From: an uncultured Bacillota bacterium
GTDB lineage: Bacteria; Sysuimicrobiota; Sysuimicrobiia; Sysuimicrobiales; Segetimicrobiaceae
Direction of reading: 5' to 3'
Length of the DNA stretch: 64,000 bases
Assembly (NCBI GenBank): GCA_963804645.1
Contig: CAWDRG010000004.1
Coordinates: 64,001 to 128,000 of the forward strand
Shown here: one piece after another, positions 50,861 to 60,232 of the stretch
Layout: each line of letters starts with the position of its first letter
How positions within the stretch are numbered: position 1 is the stretch's first letter
Made by a program: the position numbers and the translations under genes
Notes under the pieces: generated by a model
Databases searched by the model: none
What the model was told of the DNA's origin: nothing
Seen by the model: only the letters and a program-made list of their open reading frames with translations

Positions 50861-50889
50861 TTGACAAACGAACATATGTTTGGTAAGTT
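50861..50889 (+). promoter_or_regulatory. recA promoter with a Gram-positive-type LexA (Cheo) box in the spacer
   Basis: TTGACA (50861)-17-TAAGTT (50884) with extended TG; CGAACATATGTTTG at 50869-50882 vs consensus CGAAC-N4-GTTCG. Confidence 0.85.
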
Positions 50890-50942
50890 TGGACCAACTT
50901 AAACAGCCAAAACCGCTCCATCACAGCGGAAGGAGACGCAGC

Positions 50943-52034
50943 ATGAACGAGCGACAGCGAGCCCTGGATCTCGCCCTGACCCAGATCGAGAAGCAGTTTG
51001 GCAAGGGATCGATCATGAAGCTCGGCGAGCACCAGGCCAAGCTGACCGTGGACATTATCCCGACCGGTGCGCTTGCGCTGGACGTGGCGCTCGGAGTCGG
51101 CGGCGTGCCGCGCGGGCGGGTCGTAGAGATTTACGGGCCTGAGTCCTCGGGGAAGACGACGCTCGGGTATCACATCATCGCGGAGGCGCAGCGGGAGGGC
51201 GGCGTCGCGGCGTTCATCGATGCGGAGCACGCGCTGAATCCCGAGTACGCCCGCAACGTCGGCGTGGACATCGACAACCTCCTGATCTCCCAGCCGGATT
51301 CCGGCGAGCAGGCGCTCGAGATCGCGGAGATGCTCGTGCGCTCGGGCGCGATCGACGTGGTGGTCGTCGATTCCGTCGCGGCCCTTGTGCCCCGGGCGGA
51401 GCTGGAAGGCGAGATGGGCGACGCGCACGTCGGACTGCAGGCGCGCTTGATGTCCCAGGCGCTCCGCAAGCTCGTGGGGGCGATCAACAAATCGCGCACC
51501 ACCGTCATCTTCATCAACCAGCTGCGCGAGAAGGTTGGGGTAATGTTCGGCTCGCCGGAGGTCACGTCCGGCGGCCGGGCGTTGAAGTTTTACGCATCCG
51601 TGCGGCTGGATATCCGGCGCATCGAATCGATCAAGTCGGGCGACCAGGTGCTCGGCCAGCGCGTGCGGGTGAAGGTCGTCAAGAACAAATTGGCCGCCCC
51701 ATTCCGCGACGCCGAGCTGGAGATCATCTTTCCCCGCGGCATCAGCAAGGCGAGTAGCCTGATCGACGTGGCGACGTTGCAGGGGATCATCACCCGGACC
51801 GGCACGTGGTTTTCGTATAAGGATATGCGGCTCGGGCAGGGCCGCGACAACGCGCGCGAATTCTTGGAGAATAATCCCGAGCTGGCGATTGAGATTGAGG
51901 CGCGGACGCGCGAGAAGCTGGGGCTGACCCGTTCCGTCGCATCGGTGAGCGCCGCCGTGGCGGATGCGTCCGAGAACGGGGATGCCGGGACCGCGGCACC
52001 GAAGCCGGGTTCCGCGCGGGCCCAGCGGTCATAG
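50943..52034 (+). CDS. recA: Recombinase RecA
   Basis: [65 protein letters not shown]. Confidence 0.99.
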
Positions 52035-52108
52035 ACCCCACGACGAGCAGTCCGGGGGGCGCGAGTCCGGGCGAACGCCGGACCGCGCGACGATGACGAG
52101 GTGCGCTG

Positions 52109-52858
52109 TTGCGTAACGGCAGGCGGGCGCGACCGGCGATCCGATCGGATCGCCGGTTCGTCGCGTCGGGCGATCCGCATCACGAACCCCTGACGGTCGC
52201 CGCGATTCGGGACACCGCGGGGACCGGGGCCGGCGGGGAGTGGCGCGTCGTGGTGCTCTCGGATGGACGGACGCTTCGCGTCGACGGGGAGGAGATCGCC
52301 CGCGCCGGTCTCACGTCCGGCGAGCCGATCGCTTCCGATCTAATCGAGCGTCTTGCGGCGCGGGACGAATACTGGCGAGCGCGGGAGACGGCGGTGCGCC
52401 TGCTGGCCGCGCGCCCCCGCAGCACCGAGGAGCTCCGCGCCCGGTTCCGCCGGGACGGGGTGGCGGACGCGCAGGCGCAGGCGGTGCTGACGGATCTCGC
52501 CGCCTGCGGGTATCTGGACGATCTCGCGTTCGCTCGCGCGTGGATCGAGTCGCGGCTCGGCCGGAATCCGTGCGGGTCCGCACGGCTGCGCGGGGAGCTG
52601 CGTCAGCGTGGCATCGCGCTTGCGGTGATCGAGCAGGCGATCCGGGAGGCCTACGGCGAAGAAGGGACCTCCGTGGGAGAAGAACGAGATGCCGCCGCCG
52701 TCGTGGAGCGCCGCAGCCGCGCCTACGCGTCGCTGCCGCCGGAGGCGCGCGCGCGCCGGCTGGCGCGGTTCCTGGAGCGCCGGGGGTTTGCGCCGGGGAC
52801 GATCGTGCGGGCGCTCGGCACGATGAGCCGCCGCCGTACGGAGCACGCCGATGAGTAA
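52109..52858 (+). CDS. recX: RecA regulator RecX (start uncertain)
   Basis: AVRLLAARPRSTEELR, GYLDDLAFA, G..RLRGELRQRGI, FLERRGF. Confidence 0.9.
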   Translation: MRNGRRARPAIRSDRRFVASGDPHHEPLTVAAIRDTAGTGAGGEWRVVVLSDGRTLRVDGEEIARAGLTSGEPIASDLIERLAARDEYWRARETAVRLLAARPRSTEELRARFRRDGVADAQAQAVLTDLAACGYLDDLAFARAWIESRLGRNPCGSARLRGELRQRGIALAVIEQAIREAYGEEGTSVGEERDAAAVVERRSRAYASLPPEARARRLARFLERRGFAPGTIVRALGTMSRRRTEHADE

Positions 52859-55800
52859 TCGTGGGGCCGCGCGCGGGCCGTTTGATCAGCTCGGCCTCGG
52901 CCTGCCCGTGGATGCCGAGGGTGCGCCGCCGGCGGAGCCCGAGGCCGTTCCCGATACCGCGGATGTGCCGCGCCAGGTCGACACCCGCGTGGAGCGTGCC
53001 GCGCGATTGGCCGGCGTCGCCGTGGCGGAACCGCTGGCACCGTCGGGACGGGACCTGCTCGCGCCCGCCGAGGGGGTGTTGGACGGCCTCACGGAGGAGC
53101 AGCGCGACGCGGTGACCCATGGGGACGGTCCGCTGCTCATCGTGGCCGGCGCCGGAACGGGGAAGACGACCGTCCTGACCCGACGTATCGGCCACTTGAT
53201 CACGACGCGCGCCGCGCGTCCCGAGCAGGTGCTGGCGCTGACGTTCACCGACCGCGCGGCCGCCGAGATGGAGGAGCGGGTCGACCGGCTCGTCCCGTAC
53301 GGTTACACGCAGGCGTGGATCAGCACGTTTCACGCCTTCGGGGACCGGGTGCTGCGCGAGCACGCGCTCGACCTCGGGCTCCCGCCGGACTTTCGCGTGC
53401 TCAACCGGGCCGAGCAGGCGATCTTCATTCGGGAGCGGCTGTTCGAGTTTCCGCTCGATCATTTTCGTCCGCTCGGGGACCCGGCCCGCTACGTCGGCGC
53501 GCTCATCGCGCTGATCAGCCGCGCAAAGGACGAAGACGTCTCGCCGGACGAGTACGCGGTGTACGCGGACCGCCTGACCGCGGAGGCCGCGGCGGCCCCG
53601 GACGACGCGGTGCTCGCGGAGCGCGCCCGGCAGCAGCGGGAGCTCGCCGCGGCGTACCGCACGTACCAGGATCTCTTGGCCAAGGAAGGGCGCCTGGACT
53701 TCGGGGACCTGATCACGCTGACCGTCCGGCTGCTGCGCCAGCACCCGGCGGCGCTTGCGCGCTACCGGGAGCAGTTCCACCACATCCTCGTAGACGAGTT
53801 CCAAGACACCAACTACGCGCAGTTCGAGCTGGTGAAGCTGCTCGCCGGCACCCGGCGCAACCTCACCGTGGTCGCCGACGACGACCAGGCGATCTACCGC
53901 TTCCGCGGCGCGTCCTACAGCAACATCACGTACTTTACCGAGGCATACGCGGACGCGCGGACGGTCGTGCTGACCCGGAACTACCGGTCGACCCAGTTCA
54001 TCCTCGACGCGGCGTACCGGCTGATCCGCCACAACGATCCGGACCGGCTCGAGGTCCGCATCGGGATCGACAAGCGCCTCCACGCCGTCGCGGGGCCCGG
54101 CGTGCTGCCCCGCCACCTGCACTACGACTCGCTCGGCGCGGAGGCCGACGGGGTGGCCGACCGGATCGCGGAGCGCGTCGCCGCGGGCGCCTGGCGGTAC
54201 CGGGATGTCGCGATCCTGGTGCGGGGCAACAAGGACGCCGATCCGTTCCTCCGCGCGCTCAACCTGCGCGGCATCCCGCACCTGTTCTCCGGGACGCGCG
54301 GCCTGTACGACCGCGAGGAGATCCGCCTCGTGACGTCGTTCCTGCGCGCGCTCGCCCATCCCGACGACAGCCTGTCGCTGTACCATCTCAGCGCGTCCGC
54401 GCTGTACGAGTTTCCGTCGGCGGATCTGGCCGCGTGCATGAGCTACGCCAGCCGGAAGCACCGGTCGCTCGGACACGTGTACCGCCACCTCGACCGGATC
54501 GAGGACCTCGGGCTCACGCGCGACGGGCGAGCGGCCGCGGTGAAGATCGTGGACGACCTCGACGCGATGGCCCGCCTCGCGCCGCGCTACCCCACCGGGC
54601 GCGTGCTGTACGAATATTTGGTGAACCGCACGGAGTACATCGGACGGCTCGCGTCGTCCGAACGCCCCGAGGACGAGCAGAAGGTCGCCAACATCGCGAG
54701 GTTCTTCGACATCGTCGCGCGGTTCGGTGATGTGGCGCCGGTCGACCGTGTCCCGGCGTTCGTCGCGTACCTCGACCTCTTGATCGACGCCGGGGACGAT
54801 CCGCCGACCGCCGAGGCCGAATCCGACGCGGACGCGGTGCGGGTGCTCACGATCCACAAGGCCAAGGGCCTGGAGTTTCCTGTGGTGTTCCTCGTCAGCC
54901 TCGTGACCGACAAGTTTCCGTCGCGGGGACGGCGCGATCCGCTGCCGCTGCCGGACGCGCTGATGAAGGACCTGCTGCCGAGCGGGGATTTCCACGTCGA
55001 GGAGGAGCGGCGGCTGTGCTACGTCGGGCTGACGCGCGCCGGGCGGGAGCTGTTTCTGACGAGCGGCACGGACTACGGCGGCGCGCGGCCGCGGAAGGTG
55101 AGCCGGTTCGTGCTGGAAGCGCTCGACGTGCCGCGCGCGGCACCCGAGCCGGTCCGCGCGTCCGCGGTCCAGGCGGTGGAGCGCCATGCGCCTCCGGCGG
55201 AGCCGGACGCGCCCACGCTGATCCCGCTCGACCAGGACGCCGTGCTGCAGCTGTCGTTCCGGCAGGTCGACGACTACATGACCTGCCCCTACAAGTACCG
55301 GTACATCCATCTCCTGCGCGTGCCCGTGCTGCGGAACCACCAGGTCGCCTACGGGTCGGCGCTGCACGAGGCCGTCCAGGAGTACAACCGGCGCAAGGCG
55401 CGGCACCAGCCGGTGACCGCCGATGACCTCGTGGCCCACTTCGAGCGCGCGTGGGTGAACGAGGGGTTTCTCAGCCGGGAGCACGAAGACCAGCGCATGG
55501 AGGCCGGCCGGGAGGCGGTCCGACGGTTCTTCGCGTATCAGGAGGCGAGCGGGACCGTGCCGACCTTCGTCGAGCGCGAGTTCCGGTTCGCGGTCGGCCA
55601 AAACGTCCTGCGGGGGCGGTGGGACCGCGTGGACGTGCGGGGCAGCGAGGTCGTGATCATCGATTTCAAGAGCACCGACGTGCGGGCGGAGCGGGACGCG
55701 GACCGCCGCGCGAAGGACAGCGAGCAGCTGTCGATCTACGCGCTGGCGTACGAGGCGGTGTTCGGGCGGCAGCCGGATCGGGTCGAGCTGCATTTCCTCG

Positions 55801-55985
55801 GGCGCGAGGTGGTTGTGGGGCACGCGCGGAAGACAGAAGCGGACCTCGAGGCCGTGCGCACGATGATCCTCGAGGCCGCGGCCGGGATCCGCGCGCAGCG
55901 GTTCATCGCGACGCCGGATCCATACCGCGCGTGTCCGTACTGTGCGTTCAACCAAATCTGTCCGTTTACGGCGGCGGCCACATGA
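52851..55985 (+). CDS. UvrD/SF1A helicase fused to a C-terminal Fe-S PD-(D/E)XK nuclease (AdnA/AdnB/AddAB-like, single chain)
   Basis: AGAGTGKT, VDEFQD, DDDQAIYRFRGA, NYRS, TIHKAKGLEF, EERRLCYVGLTRA; nuclease TCPYKY, GRWDRVD, IIDFKS, QLSIYA, CPYCAFNQIC. Confidence 0.92.
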   Translation: MSNRGAARGPFDQLGLGLPVDAEGAPPAEPEAVPDTADVPRQVDTRVERAARLAGVAVAEPLAPSGRDLLAPAEGVLDGLTEEQRDAVTHGDGPLLIVAGAGTGKTTVLTRRIGHLITTRAARPEQVLALTFTDRAAAEMEERVDRLVPYGYTQAWISTFHAFGDRVLREHALDLGLPPDFRVLNRAEQAIFIRERLFEFPLDHFRPLGDPARYVGALIALISRAKDEDVSPDEYAVYADRLTAEAAAAPDDAVLAERARQQRELAAAYRTYQDLLAKEGRLDFGDLITLTVRLLRQHPAALARYREQFHHILVDEFQDTNYAQFELVKLLAGTRRNLTVVADDDQAIYRFRGASYSNITYFTEAYADARTVVLTRNYRSTQFILDAAYRLIRHNDPDRLEVRIGIDKRLHAVAGPGVLPRHLHYDSLGAEADGVADRIAERVAAGAWRYRDVAILVRGNKDADPFLRALNLRGIPHLFSGTRGLYDREEIRLVTSFLRALAHPDDSLSLYHLSASALYEFPSADLAACMSYASRKHRSLGHVYRHLDRIEDLGLTRDGRAAAVKIVDDLDAMARLAPRYPTGRVLYEYLVNRTEYIGRLASSERPEDEQKVANIARFFDIVARFGDVAPVDRVPAFVAYLDLLIDAGDDPPTAEAESDADAVRVLTIHKAKGLEFPVVFLVSLVTDKFPSRGRRDPLPLPDALMKDLLPSGDFHVEEERRLCYVGLTRAGRELFLTSGTDYGGARPRKVSRFVLEALDVPRAAPEPVRASAVQAVERHAPPAEPDAPTLIPLDQDAVLQLSFRQVDDYMTCPYKYRYIHLLRVPVLRNHQVAYGSALHEAVQEYNRRKARHQPVTADDLVAHFERAWVNEGFLSREHEDQRMEAGREAVRRFFAYQEASGTVPTFVEREFRFAVGQNVLRGRWDRVDVRGSEVVIIDFKSTDVRAERDADRRAKDSEQLSIYALAYEAVFGRQPDRVELHFLGREVVVGHARKTEADLEAVRTMILEAAAGIRAQRFIATPDPYRACPYCAFNQICPFTAAAT

Positions 55986-57133
55986 GCGTTCGGATCCTGC
56001 ATACCTCAGACGTGCACCTCGGCGCGACGTTCAAAATGCTCGGCGCGCGCGGACGGGAGCAGCACAAGCAGCTCCAGCAGACGTTCGCGAACGTCGTCTC
56101 GCTGGCGATCCAGGAGCGCGTCGACGTGGTGCTGATCGCCGGCGACCTGTTCGACTCCGTCGCCGCGGCCCGCACCGAGGCCGGATTTGCCGGGGCGCAG
56201 TTCGAGCGCCTCGGGGCCGCGGACATTCCGATCTGCGCGATCGCCGGGAACCACGATCCGCTGGACGAGGGCAGCGCCGGGCTGTGGCGCGACCTCGAAG
56301 CGCGCCATCCGCACCTGCGGGTGTTCGGGCCCGATCTCGAGGTGCGGACGCTGCGCGAGCGGGATGTGACGATCGTGGGGCGGTCCGCCGCGCACCGCGT
56401 GTCCGCACGGAGCCCGCTCACCGGCCCGTCGGCTCGGGCGGGCGGCGTCCCGGCGCCTCGGACGACCAAGTACCTGGTCGGGGTATTTCACGGCAGCGTC
56501 CAGCGCCCCGACTTCGAGTCGAAGTTCGGCCTGATCACGCCGGAAGAGATCGCGGCGAGCGGCCTCGACTATCTCGCGCTCGGCGATTGGCACTCGGCGC
56601 TCGACGTCTCGTCGGGCGGCGTTACCGCGTGGTACAGCGGGGCGCCCGAGATGATCGACGTCGATGAGAGCGCGTCCGGCAACGTGCTGCTGGTGACCCT
56701 CAGGGCGCCCGGGCGCGCCGAGGTCGAACGGCGGCGCGTCGGCCGGCGCCGCGCCGCGCGCCTCGATCTCGATCTCGTCACCGCCGGCGGGGCGGCCGGG
56801 GTGGAGCGGGCGATTCGGGAGCGCGCGGATACCGACCTTGCGCTTCAGGTGACGCTGTCGGGGCTGGTCGCCGTCGGGGAGCGGTTCGACGTCGCGCGGC
56901 TGCGGGAGGATCTGCGCTCGGAGTTCTTCCGGCTGGAGATCCGCGACGCCTCCCAAGTGCGCGCGGACGACGCGGATCTCGCGGAGTACCCCGAGGGCAC
57001 CATGCTCGGCCGGTTCGTCCGCCGGATGCGCGACGAGATCGCTGCGCGGCAGGGCGAGGAGCGCACCGTCGCGGAAGACGCGCTCGCCTATGGGGTGGCG
57101 CTGCTGCAGGGTCGGACGGGGGTCCTCGGATGA
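55982..57133 (+). CDS. Mre11/SbcD/YhaO-like metallophosphoesterase nuclease
   Basis: HTSDVHLG, AGDLFD, AGNHD, FHG, YLALGDWH, YSGAPE; ATGA overlap with the helicase. Confidence 0.9.
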   Translation: MSVRILHTSDVHLGATFKMLGARGREQHKQLQQTFANVVSLAIQERVDVVLIAGDLFDSVAAARTEAGFAGAQFERLGAADIPICAIAGNHDPLDEGSAGLWRDLEARHPHLRVFGPDLEVRTLRERDVTIVGRSAAHRVSARSPLTGPSARAGGVPAPRTTKYLVGVFHGSVQRPDFESKFGLITPEEIAASGLDYLALGDWHSALDVSSGGVTAWYSGAPEMIDVDESASGNVLLVTLRAPGRAEVERRRVGRRRAARLDLDLVTAGGAAGVERAIRERADTDLALQVTLSGLVAVGERFDVARLREDLRSEFFRLEIRDASQVRADDADLAEYPEGTMLGRFVRRMRDEIAARQGEERTVAEDALAYGVALLQGRTGVLG

Positions 57134-59280
57134 TCATCCGGCGGCTGCGTGTGCGGCGGTTCCGCAAGCTCGTCGACCAGGACTTCGTGTGCGGGCCCGG
57201 ACTGAACGTGGTGCGCGGGCCGAACGACGCCGGAAAATCGACGCTGCACCTGGCGTTCTCCGCCGCGCTGTTCCCGTCGCTGCCGCGGGAAGTGAAGTCC
57301 TACGGACCGTGGGGCGAGGATCATCCCGGCGAGATCTCGGTGGAGTTCGAAAGCGACGGCGACACGTTCCGCCTGCGGAAGGACTTCGCCGGGCGCAAGA
57401 TCGTCCTCGAGAGCAGCCGGGAGACGCTCGAGGTCCCCAAGCTGATCGAGGCGCGCATCGGCGAGCTCGTCGGGGTGTCGAGCGTGAACCTGTTCCGGTC
57501 GACGCTGCACATCGGCCAGTGGGAGCTCAGCGCGCTCGATGAAGGGGCGCAGCGCGAGATCGGCAGCCGGCTCTCGCGGATCGTCACGGGCGGAGACACG
57601 GATGGGGTGCGCGTCCTGAGCGATCTCGAGAAGTACATCGCGGAGCAGGAAGTGGGGCTGACGCGCCCCGCGAAGAACCCCGGGCCCCTGAAGCGCGAGC
57701 ACGACGAACTCGCGAGGCTCGCGGAGCTGCGGTCGCGCCTCTCGGGCGAGGTCCAGGACACGGAGCGGGCGGCCGCCGAGCGCGACCGCCTCGCGGAGCG
57801 CTGCGCCGAGGAGGACAGTCAGGTGCGCGCCGACGAGGCCCTCGCGGAGGCCAACCGGCGCCTGCGCGAGGTCGACCAGCAGTGCGAGGTGCTCTCCCGC
57901 CGCGCCGAGGAACTGCAGGCGGGGCTCGCGCAGGCCGACGCGGCGTCGAACGAGCTGGCCGCGGCGGTGACGGAGGTGGAGTCGCTGGAGCCCGCACCGG
58001 ACCCTGCCGCGGCGGAGGCCCTCCGCGCCGGCGTGGTGCGTGAGAAGCTGCTGCAGGAGGCGATGGACGAGGCCGAAGAGGCGGCGCGGCTCGTGATCGG
58101 GGACCGGCCGGGGCGCAGCGCGCTGGCGTCGTCGGCGCCGCGGCCGGCGTGGGCGGTGTTCGGTTTGGTGGCCGCCGGGGCCGCCATGGCGGTCGGGCTG
58201 ACGCTGCTGCTCACCGGCCACGCGTACTGGGGCACGGCGACCGTCCTCGGCGGGGCGCTGCTTGCGGTCATCATCGGATTCGCGGCATGGGCGAGCGTCA
58301 CCGAGGGCCGGTACCGCGAGCGCGCGGACGCTGCGGAGAAGACACTCGCGGCCAGGCGCCGCGACGTAGAGGATGCGGCCGAGACGACGCGCGCGCAGCT
58401 GATGGCGCTCGGGGCGACGTCGGTGGCCGACGCGCTGGGACGGGCCGCGCGTGCCGAGGAGGCGCGGCAGAAGCGCGACGCCGCCCAGCGGGTGCTCGAA
58501 GGCCTCCAGCGCGGGCGCGACCGCGAGGCCATCACGAAAGAGCTGTCCCAGACCCTCGTCAACCTCGGGGTCGCCCGAACCGTGCGGGAGGACCCGGAGC
58601 TCGCGCTGAAGCGGCTGGATCCCGCGGCCTACCAGCGCCTCGGGGGCGAGGCGAAGCAGCGGCGCGAGGGGTTGGAGCGGATGAAGCGCGACCTCCAGCG
58701 CCTCGAGGGGCGCCTCGCCATGCAGTCCCGGTACTCGGATCTCGCGGCGGTGGAGGAGCAGATCGCCGAGCTCGAGGCGCGCGCCGCGCGCCGGGCGCGC
58801 CAGATGAACGCGCTGCGCTTGGCCCGCAACGTCCTCGACGCCGCCCACCGCGAGACGGTGGTGTCGGGGAAGGCCGTGCTCGAGGAGCACGCCGGCCGCT
58901 ATCTCCGGGAGCTGTCCGGCGGGGCCTACGAGCGCATCCAGGTGGACGAGCAGACGCTGGCTCCTCGGGTGTGGGTCGGCGGGCCGAAGGAGTGGGCGGA
59001 CGTCGAAGCCCGCGAGGTCGGCAGCGCGGGCGTGCACCAGTGCTATCTGGCACTGCGCCTTGCGCTGGTCGACGTGCTCTACGGCGACCGGAAGCCTCCG
59101 CTGTTTCTGGACGATCCGTTCCTGGCGTACGATGCGGACCGCCAGGCCTCCGCGATCACGTGCCTGCAGGCCATCGCGCGCGACCGGCAGATCTTCTTGT
59201 TTACGTGCCGCGACGCGTACGACGCGGCGGCAGACCGTCTGATCGTGCTGGGCGGCGGGGAGCGGGTCCCGGCGGGGTAA
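57130..59280 (+). CDS. Rad50/SbcC/YhaN-like SMC-type ATPase with a central transmembrane hairpin
   Basis: Walker A GPNDAGKST, coiled coils, hydrophobic 58150-58299, signature-like SAG..QCYLALRLA, Walker B LFLDDPF, LFTC. Confidence 0.88.
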   Translation: MIIRRLRVRRFRKLVDQDFVCGPGLNVVRGPNDAGKSTLHLAFSAALFPSLPREVKSYGPWGEDHPGEISVEFESDGDTFRLRKDFAGRKIVLESSRETLEVPKLIEARIGELVGVSSVNLFRSTLHIGQWELSALDEGAQREIGSRLSRIVTGGDTDGVRVLSDLEKYIAEQEVGLTRPAKNPGPLKREHDELARLAELRSRLSGEVQDTERAAAERDRLAERCAEEDSQVRADEALAEANRRLREVDQQCEVLSRRAEELQAGLAQADAASNELAAAVTEVESLEPAPDPAAAEALRAGVVREKLLQEAMDEAEEAARLVIGDRPGRSALASSAPRPAWAVFGLVAAGAAMAVGLTLLLTGHAYWGTATVLGGALLAVIIGFAAWASVTEGRYRERADAAEKTLAARRRDVEDAAETTRAQLMALGATSVADALGRAARAEEARQKRDAAQRVLEGLQRGRDREAITKELSQTLVNLGVARTVREDPELALKRLDPAAYQRLGGEAKQRREGLERMKRDLQRLEGRLAMQSRYSDLAAVEEQIAELEARAARRARQMNALRLARNVLDAAHRETVVSGKAVLEEHAGRYLRELSGGAYERIQVDEQTLAPRVWVGGPKEWADVEAREVGSAGVHQCYLALRLALVDVLYGDRKPPLFLDDPFLAYDADRQASAITCLQAIARDRQIFLFTCRDAYDAAADRLIVLGGGERVPAG

Positions 59281-59334
59281 CGGCAGCTCCATTCCCGCGC
59301 CGTTTCGGCGCGGTGGAATGACGGACGTCGTTCG

Positions 59335-60060
59335 CTATCGCGAGGCGAGCACCCGGATGTCGGTGACCAGGTCGTTCGGGTCGAAGTTCCCCGGCAGGAA
59401 GAGCGTGATCTTACCCGAGGGATCAATCACGTAGACGATCGCGGTGTGCCCGACCTGGTCGGGTGTGGGCGCGGCCGCGGCCGACGCCGCGGGGTTGACC
59501 TCCTTGGCATCGCTGCCCACGTAATAGTGGGCCCACACCGGCTGAAGCTGGGCGAACGTCCCCCGCAGGTACGTCAGTTCTCCGCGCACGTGGTGGGCGT
59601 CCAAGAACCCCCGCACGGCCTCGGGCGTGTCGCCGTTCGGGTCGACGCTGACCGCGAGGAACGCGGTGTGGGCCGCGGTCGGGCCCAACTGCTCGTAGGT
59701 GTGGTGTAACGCGTCGGCGATCAACGGGCACACGTCCGGGCAGTGCGCGTAGAGAAACGTCATCACGACGACTTTCCCGCGGGAGTCGGAGAGGGAGACC
59801 GCCCGGCCGTCCTGGTCGGGCAGCCGGAAGTCGTACGCCGCGATCGGGGGGTTCAGGAGCGCGCCGGCGAGCGCCGGCGGCGCAAACCGGGACCGCAGGG
59901 TGGCGCCGGTGGCCGCCACCGCGGCCGCGACGACGACCGCCAAGGCGACGTACAGCCAGCGGCTGTCTCGGCGGGGCTCCTGTGCTGCGGGTGGGGTCTC
60001 GGACGGAGCGCCCTCGGGGGCCGCCCCGCCGGGTTCTGGGCCGGTCGACAACGAGATCAC
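59335..60060 (-). CDS. SCO1/SenC copper chaperone
   Basis: TM anchor, FLYAHCPDVCP (CxxxC), SVDP..DTPE, VGHT.IVYVIDP. Confidence 0.92.
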   Translation of the reverse strand: MISLSTGPEPGGAAPEGAPSETPPAAQEPRRDSRWLYVALAVVVAAAVAATGATLRSRFAPPALAGALLNPPIAAYDFRLPDQDGRAVSLSDSRGKVVVMTFLYAHCPDVCPLIADALHHTYEQLGPTAAHTAFLAVSVDPNGDTPEAVRGFLDAHHVRGELTYLRGTFAQLQPVWAHYYVGSDAKEVNPAASAAAAPTPDQVGHTAIVYVIDPSGKITLFLPGNFDPNDLVTDIRVLASR

Positions 60061-60202: not shown

Positions 60203-60232
60203 TTGACCCCCTCCGGTCGCGCAGGATACAAT
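60203..60232 (+). promoter_or_regulatory. sigma70 promoter of rny
   Basis: TTGACC-18-TACAAT in an AT-rich patch. Confidence 0.6.

Follow-up and report, generated by a model that had tools for sequence, protein, structure and literature searches.

A candidate damage-inducible DNA-end processing operon of Sysuimicrobiota, in which a one-chain helicase-nuclease and an SbcF/SbcE-like pair follow recA and recX

Two gene arrangements of Bacillus subtilis come closest to the locus considered here, a run of five genes encoding RecA, RecX, a one-chain helicase-nuclease, an Mre11-like phosphoesterase and a Rad50-like ATPase in an uncultured soil bacterium of the phylum Sysuimicrobiota (formerly CSP1-3). 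The locus lies in a window of 64,000 nucleotides, which is the whole stretch of DNA that was analysed (assembly GCA_963804645.1, contig CAWDRG010000004.1, positions 64,001 to 128,000). One report describes addB-addA-sbcD-sbcC as a putative operon in B. subtilis (PMC1533848), and another places yhaO-yhaN-yhaM in the LexA regulon, with the site ahead of yhaO (PMC2731908). The YhaN protein, or SbcE, is characterised in a third report as most similar to SbcC, as lacking a CxxC motif, and as possessing a unique, hydrophobic and insoluble central domain; its partner is the SbcD-like YhaO (SbcF), with a role in double-strand-break repair (PMC2811018). Because of these Bacillus precedents, namely the putative addBA-sbcDC operon and the LexA-regulated yhaONM genes, much of the novelty of the present locus falls away: it is not a new kind of system, and consists of known families in a lineage-specific arrangement. 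A preliminary description of the locus had treated SbcCD and YhaON as separate systems, a distinction that has to be given up, since the pair in the window is itself of the YhaO/YhaN type and both Bacillus arrangements are precedents for it. What is new is the joining of a single-chain resection-type enzyme, for which no partner was found, to an SbcFE-type pair, both within a recA-recX operon. In our view the locus is probably a core-chromosome operon that is induced by damage and serves to process DNA ends; the unity of its transcript, the activities of its products, their polarity and the contacts between the proteins are what we infer from the sequence.

The helicase-nuclease begins with a tail modelled at low confidence (residues 1-70), followed by a PcrA/UvrD-type superfamily 1A (SF1A) motor at about residues 75-790 and a PD-(D/E)XK nuclease at about residues 800-1040. 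Among structures in the PDB the motor is closest to PcrA (1pjr, 320 bits) and UvrD (279 bits), followed by AdnB (6ppu_B, 184 bits) and then by AddA and RecB, and for the last 250 residues the nuclease domain of AdnB is the only sequence match among PDB proteins (E = 8e-4). An AlphaFold2 (AF2) model, with a predicted local distance difference test score (pLDDT) of 72.6 and low confidence at residues 1-70 and 669-770, retrieves PcrA and UvrD first in Foldseek, and AddA, AdnB and RecB over the full length. The equivalog cut-offs for PcrA (445 bits against 911) and UvrD (337 against 1144) are far from reached, and the scores for addA_Gpos (212 against 708), RecB (156 against 696) and cas4 (46.4 against 65) also lie below theirs. 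In all 36 aligned orthologues the Walker A motif, the DEFQD motif and the later helicase motifs are invariant, as are the nuclease residues D925, D938-x-K940 and Q959xxxY963 and the cysteines C812, C1028, C1031 and C1037. One of the four cysteines lies on the N-terminal side of the nuclease core and three lie on its C-terminal side, the iron-sulfur pattern of the Cas4/AddB type, and the domain may bind a cluster.

The enzyme can be compared with several described families. It resembles the SF1A helicases PcrA, UvrD and Rep in its best sequence and fold matches over the motor and in possessing all helicase motifs, but carries some 250 additional C-terminal residues that form the four-cysteine PD-(D/E)XK nuclease, and a separate PcrA-like gene exists alongside it. 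It resembles AdnB in the joining of a UvrD-like motor to a RecB-type nuclease at the C-terminus and in a chain length of about 1050-1100 residues; AdnAB, however, is a heterodimer of two motor-nuclease chains, and a second chain was not found in the study genome (G000; 5.3 Mb, 22 contigs, 96.8% complete). As in RecB, according to the fold matches, one nuclease domain is tethered to an SF1A motor, although the RecB score is far below its cut-off. The study genome contains only two UvrD-family loci, the helicase-nuclease and a nuclease-less PcrA-like gene, the latter (C17:482441-484671) read in two frames with the change near alignment residues 240-269; it is intact in relatives, and the split is either a frameshift or an assembly error. 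PDDEXK_1 and SbcD-like models each match a single locus, and the models addB_Gpos and addB_alphas match none. No AddAB, AdnAB or RecB-type enzyme and no second UvrD-family nuclease chain was thus found in this genome, in a search that did not extend to RecC and RecD, and the single motor-nuclease chain proposed in the preliminary description agrees with these results. Most genomes of the phylum likewise yield only two UvrD-type matches, an orthologue of the helicase-nuclease and a PcrA-like gene. In the literature no one-chain UvrD/PD-(D/E)XK enzyme in a recA operon was found, subscription journals lying outside the scope of that search, and the available portions of publications on Sysuimicrobiota/CSP1-3, searched by term, do not mention helicase or nuclease genes.

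The Mre11-like protein scores 75.4 bits against the SbcD model TIGR00619, just below the cut-off of 77.65 and over profile positions 2-93 only, and its family profile matches Mre11 (1ii7, 1.5e-17) and SbcD (6s6v_A, 2.8e-17). Metal-binding motifs I to V are all present (D10-x-H12, G-D55, G-N90-H91, H170 and G-D202-W-H204); D10, H12, D55, H91, H170 and H204 are invariant in 30 aligned homologues, in which N90 and D202 are at least 90% conserved. Motif V has the form GDxH; in Mre11 and SbcD it is GHxH. For the ATPase, the AAA_27 (PF13514) score exceeds the cut-off of 22 bits, with the match confined to residues 1-48, and the family profile matches the heads of Rad50 (2.6e-30), with SbcC weaker. 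Its AF2 model (pLDDT 83) consists of an ATP-binding cassette (ABC) head, two long helices and an apical helix pair, and has Rad50 (7zr1, 1.5e-13) as its top Foldseek match. Throughout the phylum the ATPase retains the Walker A, Q-loop, signature-like, Walker B and D-loop motifs. The ABC head is split by an antiparallel coiled coil as in Rad50 and SbcC, but, unlike Rad50, the 716-residue sequence contains no CxxC zinc hook, and the apex is a pair of hydrophobic helices. The hydrophobic hairpin spans about residues 343-390, with two hydrophobic 19-mers at 0.49 and 0.53 of the length, the midpoint of the coiled coil; at least one central 19-mer occurs in 30 of 30 aligned family members and two in 23 of the 30.

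On these grounds the pair is classed as SbcF/SbcE (YhaO/YhaN)-like, an assignment made by the features described for SbcE and not by direct alignment to the Bacillus proteins. The likeness lies in a phosphoesterase gene directly upstream of the ATPase gene, an AAA_27-type head, the missing CxxC motif and the hydrophobic central domain, and with the yhaONM genes the locus also shares a LexA-type site ahead of its first gene. The nearest locus from Bacillales, in Paenibacillus (L058), matches the two head halves of the ATPase at 30-32% identity and is the sole, indirect link to YhaN. B. subtilis YhaN has about 960 residues, many more than the ATPase of the window. Moreover, no yhaM-like gene follows, and the pair stands behind recA-recX and the helicase-nuclease gene and not behind a promoter of its own. 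With the addBA-sbcDC arrangement, the likeness is that end-resection helicase-nuclease genes directly precede an Mre11/Rad50-type pair on one strand; AddAB, however, is composed of two chains and SbcC has a zinc hook, whereas the present locus encodes one chain and an SbcFE-type pair and is led by recA and recX. A resemblance of organisation only is offered by the archaeal HerA-NurA-Mre11-Rad50 system, whose operon likewise brings together the genes of a long-range resection motor and nuclease and those of an Mre11/Rad50-type pair. There, a hexameric FtsK-like ATPase and NurA occupy the place taken here by the fusion of an SF1A helicase with a PD-(D/E)XK nuclease, and the Rad50-like protein of the window differs in lacking the zinc hook.

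Damage inducibility is suggested by a LexA-type (Cheo-like) box, CGAACATATGTTTG, within the recA promoter. The box differs by one base from the palindrome GAAC-N4-GTTC, and its GTTTG half-site is also conserved in relatives. A search of the window for the exact palindrome does not match the recA box and finds a single site, inside rny, against 0.74 expected in the window by chance. Across the 5.3-Mb genome 26 motifs of the box type occur, and the open reading frames (ORFs) were examined at nine of them: the box lies 64 nucleotides upstream of a lexA ORF on contig C13, 87 nucleotides upstream of uvrA, and 16 nucleotides upstream of both dinB and an Rv2578c-type radical SAM gene. The genome encodes LexA twice (C13:56385-56984 and C9:347478-348077; 259 and 203 bits), and the box was seen upstream of the C13 copy only. 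A further CGAAC-N4-GTTCG box, at C9:692830, precedes by 51 nucleotides the ORF covering one of two Ku genes, and therefore end joining may share the SOS-type operator. A near variant of the box precedes a dnaB gene with an intein (L127:4052-6895 in the study genome), whose 947-residue product matches intein-containing models. Among relatives, the CGAAC-N4-GTTTG box stands just upstream of recA in 14 of the 15 recA-recX-helicase loci for which upstream DNA was available, the exception being L096. In two families in which recA is located elsewhere it is found upstream of recX-helicase in five of five loci, and it precedes none of the three examined recA genes that are unlinked to the helicase gene; thus, the operator travels with the module. 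This conservation, together with the boxes at lexA, uvrA and dinB, confirms the LexA-type box reported at recA in the preliminary description. The box is real, and LexA is its presumed ligand. Separately, a 20-nucleotide repeat with a GAAC-N4-GTTT core is present in about eight genomic copies in both orientations (at about 35633 in the window and on C1, C2, C9, C13 and C17), one of them about 170 nucleotides upstream of the lexA box.

The five genes are closely packed (Table 1). The TAA of recX at 52856-58 overlaps the helicase ATG at 52851, an overlap of 8 nucleotides, and ATGA overlaps of 4 nucleotides join the helicase gene to the Mre11-like gene (55982-85) and the latter to the ATPase gene (57130-33). 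Both the gene identities and the stop-to-start coupling proposed earlier are upheld by the family searches and by these junctions. No intrinsic terminator was found from recX to the ATPase stop except a weak site at 53443 within the helicase gene, which is taken as chance. The start of recA is taken as ATG 50944, which is preceded by the ribosome site GGAAGGAGA; the ORF list has TTG 50880. The flanking genes are a core-chromosome, housekeeping context, with ftsK, a rodZ-like gene, cinA and ligT upstream and rny, ymdB and spoVS downstream. RNase Y, the product of rny, scores 728 bits against its family, and the consensus promoter scan gives its gene a separate promoter-like site at 60203-60232. 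The order recA-recX to rny given in the preliminary description is right, but here a minus-strand SCO1/SenC-family gene separates the ATPase gene from rny. That gene looks like a local insertion, because rny directly follows the ATPase gene in the related loci L005 and L096. The ATPase and SCO1/SenC genes converge on a hairpin that is possibly a terminator for both, with modest support. In one metatranscriptome library, short contigs match the recA, helicase and Mre11-like genes with zero or one difference; the greater part of the helicase gene and almost the whole of the ATPase gene are without a contig. The organism was therefore present in that sample, and the matches are compatible with expression, DNA carry-over being possible.

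Table 1. Features of the recA-led locus; positions are those of the 64,000-nucleotide window.
Feature	Position	Strand	Evidence and remarks
recA promoter	50861-50889	+	-35 TTGACA at 50861-66, 17-nt spacer, TGG-TAAGTT with -10 at 50884-89
LexA-type (Cheo-like) box CGAACATATGTTTG	50869-82	+	inside the 17-nt spacer of the recA promoter
recA	ATG 50944 to 52034	+	TIGR02012 549.5 bits (cut-off 325); PF00154 E = 3.5e-138
recX	TTG 52109 or GTG 52240 (start uncertain) to 52858	+	RecX_HTH1, HTH2 and HTH3 all above cut-offs
One-chain helicase-nuclease, 1044 aa	52851-55985	+	UvrD-helicase 1.3e-78, UvrD_C 1.3e-41, PDDEXK_1 1.4e-33
Mre11/SbcD-like phosphoesterase (SbcF/YhaO type), 383 aa	55982-57133	+	Metallophos 4.8e-13
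Rad50-like ABC ATPase (SbcE/YhaN type), 716 aa	57130-59280	+	AAA_23 39.2 bits, AAA_27 25.9 bits, both above cut-offs
GC-rich hairpin	59290-59320		-28 kcal/mol, z = -1.89; 10 of 200 shuffles fold equally well; no U tract
SCO1/SenC-family gene	59335-60060	-	PF02630, 6e-25; between ATPase gene and rny

Linkage within the phylum was read from coordinate tables for 94 species genomes of one order. An orthologue of the helicase-nuclease, at least 59% identical, is encoded by 90 of the 94; the exceptions are a single 65%-complete genome and the three genomes that make up one genus (94-99% complete), these three also being without the ATPase. Of the 90 genomes, 56 have the helicase gene upstream of the ATPase gene at a distance of 1.1-1.9 kb, and 67 have it downstream of recA at a distance of one recX-length (helicase and recA apart in 10, unresolved in 13). 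These counts include the unpublished genomes G017 and G025, and without them become 55 of 88 for helicase-ATPase and 65 of 88 for helicase-recA. In every arrangement seen, recX is directly upstream of the helicase gene. The order of the window, recA-recX-helicase-Mre11-like-ATPase(-rny), has a variant with a WYL-domain ORF ahead of the Mre11-like gene. A further arrangement, recX-helicase-HAD hydrolase-Mre11-like-ATPase, has its own box, and recA then lies on a different contig or at a distance of 6-17 kb. Junctions in which stop and start overlap are conserved in four families: an overlapping start of -8, -4 or -1 is possible between recX and the helicase gene in 11 of 16 loci of relatives, the helicase to Mre11-like junction is -4 in 8 of the 12 loci free of an inserted gene, and the Mre11-like to ATPase junction is -4 or -1 in 14 of 17.

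The inserted genes deserve separate mention. In one family a HAD hydrolase gene separates the helicase-nuclease and Mre11-like genes (L083:5528-6283, also L084-L087), and a Chloroflexota HAD hydrolase gene (L132:11308-12108) directly follows a helicase-nuclease orthologue, its product being 43% identical to that of L083 over 134 residues (E = 1e-16). The hydrolase may be a recurrent partner of the helicase-nuclease, for example an end phosphatase; when an orthologue was sought in the study genome, only generic HAD matches were found. The WYL-domain ORF (L096:6804-7262) is the counterpart insertion in another family (G092), and WYL regulators are known from DNA-damage responses. In several relatives (L005, L119 of G024 and others) recA matches fall in two pieces within frames of 720-750 residues, which suggests intein-containing recA genes; the recA of the window is without an intein.

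To look beyond the phylum, a single genome from each species was scanned; 316 relatives of the ATPase were confirmed, the search alignment consisting of members that share the Walker A stretch. Among the best 80 of these 316 loci, an Mre11-like gene is directly upstream of the ATPase gene in 68, from many phyla, and most of the rest are cut by contig ends. One Anaerolineales locus has a weak helicase match upstream of the pair. The other neighbours are unrelated housekeeping genes, except in a Variovorax locus, where a helix-turn-helix-WYL regulator (L060:7550-8539) and the SbcFE-like pair are followed by recC. Two Chloroflexota genomes encode a helicase-nuclease 51-53% identical to that of the window. 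Across the best 80 of 316 ATPase loci and these two Chloroflexota genomes, the helicase-nuclease and the pair are joined in Sysuimicrobiota/CSP1-3 only. A language-model look-up returned the same three-domain architecture from Nitrospirota, Chloroflexota, Acidobacteriota, Bacteroidota and candidate phyla; these are unconfirmed leads, and some of the listed clusters may be AddA-type chains. In a FastTree phylogeny of 71 ATPase sequences, which has local Shimodaira-Hasegawa-like support only and several long branches, all in-phylum copies, including that of 'Candidatus Fervidifonticultor tertius', form one clade (support 100) beside Chloroflexota, and the sequences group by host family.

A plausible sequence of events can be proposed for the locus as a DNA-end processing operon. 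LexA would bind the CGAAC-N4-GTTTG box within the recA promoter, and DNA damage would relieve the repression. All five proteins would then be made from a single transcript, with neighbouring reading frames coupled in translation where stop and start overlap. The Mre11-like/Rad50-like pair might recognise, clean or open DNA ends, the coiled-coil tip of the ATPase being seated in the membrane in place of a zinc hook. The one-chain enzyme, substituting for AddAB, AdnAB or RecBCD, would track 3' to 5' on one strand by its PcrA-type motor, and its iron-sulfur-type nuclease would cut so as to leave a 3' tail. RecA loading would come last, tempered by RecX. The preliminary description had joined these parts into one resection machine, an idea that, like a physical complex, we infer only. 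A stronger version of the proposal holds that the one-chain enzyme is a self-sufficient resectase assembled with a membrane-tethered SbcFE-type complex and RecX, so that ends are held at the membrane, resected and passed to RecA; we put this forward tentatively and regard it as doubtful.

Several observations weigh against the end-processing proposal. A lone PcrA/UvrD-type motor usually requires a partner or a dimer for unwinding. The absences of other resection enzymes are not proven, because the assembly is in 22 contigs and 96.8% complete, and the operon is not the sole route for DNA ends, because the study genome also encodes RecJ, a RecQ-like helicase and the two Ku genes. The recA promoter does not appear in the list of the consensus promoter scan and has a weak -10 element, TAAGTT agreeing with the consensus at three of six positions; since the box is one base off and the scan missed the promoter, the box is supported by its conservation and by the other SOS genes, not by the single site. 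Contigs of the one metatranscriptome library bridge no gene junction. The synteny of the three genes in relatives, anticipated in the preliminary description, is found in the 56 genomes in which helicase and ATPase genes adjoin and breaks down in about 25 of the 90, all of one family, in which they are apart, with about 9 unresolved at contig ends. In this family the arrangement is recA-recX-helicase-rny, and the sole Mre11-like/ATPase pair is elsewhere and without a box; because rny follows the helicase gene in these genomes, the helicase-nuclease needs no adjacent pair. The ATPase tree identifies the stand-alone pair as a paralogue internal to the phylum. Both linked and stand-alone pairs are present in five genomes of one family (L104, L106, L107, L110 and L111), and sister genera with the recA-recX-helicase-rny order keep the stand-alone pair only (L103, L105, L108, L109 and L112 were compared). 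Beyond the phylum, the helicase-nuclease stands beside the pair in only two of the best 80 of 316 loci, L005 and L023, which are of this phylum's own type, and both Chloroflexota helicase-nucleases are far from their pair, without recA or recX within 8 kb.

The main rival reading is a role in the control of RecA filaments or replication forks. The motor would then strip or limit RecA filaments or process reversed forks and the nuclease trim flaps, while the pair would clean hairpins or ends independently and have no more than the SOS promoter in common with them. PcrA and UvrD, to which the motor is closest by a wide interval over AdnB, AddA and RecB, are known anti-recombinases. The constant position of recX directly upstream of the helicase gene also speaks for such a role, the more so as recX stays with the helicase when recA moves, although this is weak evidence because only two break points are possible when recA separates; and the helicase gene remains behind recA-recX in genomes without the adjacent pair. 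The anti-recombinase role, however, is already filled, because a separate PcrA/UvrD-like gene is present in nearly every genome of the phylum, including the study genome with its copy split over two frames, and the feature that marks out the AddAB, AdnAB and RecB-type resection enzymes, a fused iron-sulfur-type PD-(D/E)XK nuclease, is present with its catalytic residues invariant. We regard filament or fork control as unlikely for these reasons.

Nor need a shared neighbourhood imply a shared mechanism, and a single lineage could have gathered three independent repair functions under a strong SOS promoter. Beyond the phylum each module is found without the other, within it the two are apart in about 25 genomes, the HAD hydrolase gene and the WYL-domain ORF have entered between them in some families, and in the window the SCO1 gene has come between the ATPase gene and rny. 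Mere proximity fits poorly, however, with overlapping stops and starts kept across four families, with a genus that is without both the helicase-nuclease and the ATPase, and with independent cases of such pairing, the SbcFE-like pair with recC in Variovorax and addBA-sbcDC in Bacillus, and on balance this explanation is distinctly improbable. Hardly credible is an anti-phage or foreign-DNA degradation system resembling Gabija or Lamassu-like modules, for although PADLOC matches the motor to GajB (3.8e-96) and the ATPase weakly to LmuB and GajA, and Lamassu and JetABC chains are among the many SMC-like Foldseek matches of the ATPase, the PADLOC matches are confined to the generic motor or to the Walker A region and leave the phosphoesterase without a match, and the genes belong to a housekeeping block, where recA-recX and rny flank them, are inherited throughout the phylum with an ATPase tree that follows host family, and have an operator type common to lexA, uvrA and dinB.

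Read as a DNA-end processing operon, the locus offers a concrete and testable role, double-strand-break resection, for a family of UvrD + PD-(D/E)XK proteins of about 1000 residues, and places SbcE and SbcF, a poorly understood family whose coiled-coil tip is a membrane-type hairpin, in a natural operon together with RecA and a resection enzyme. The arrangement may be useful for designing biochemistry of SbcE and SbcF, which in Bacillus failed through insolubility of the proteins (PMC2811018). Should the architectures listed by the language-model look-up prove to be true relatives, this function would be shared by a widespread, uncharacterised family of helicase-nucleases. If the one-chain enzyme is indeed a self-sufficient resectase, it would represent a third solution beside RecBCD and the two-chain AddAB and AdnAB enzymes.

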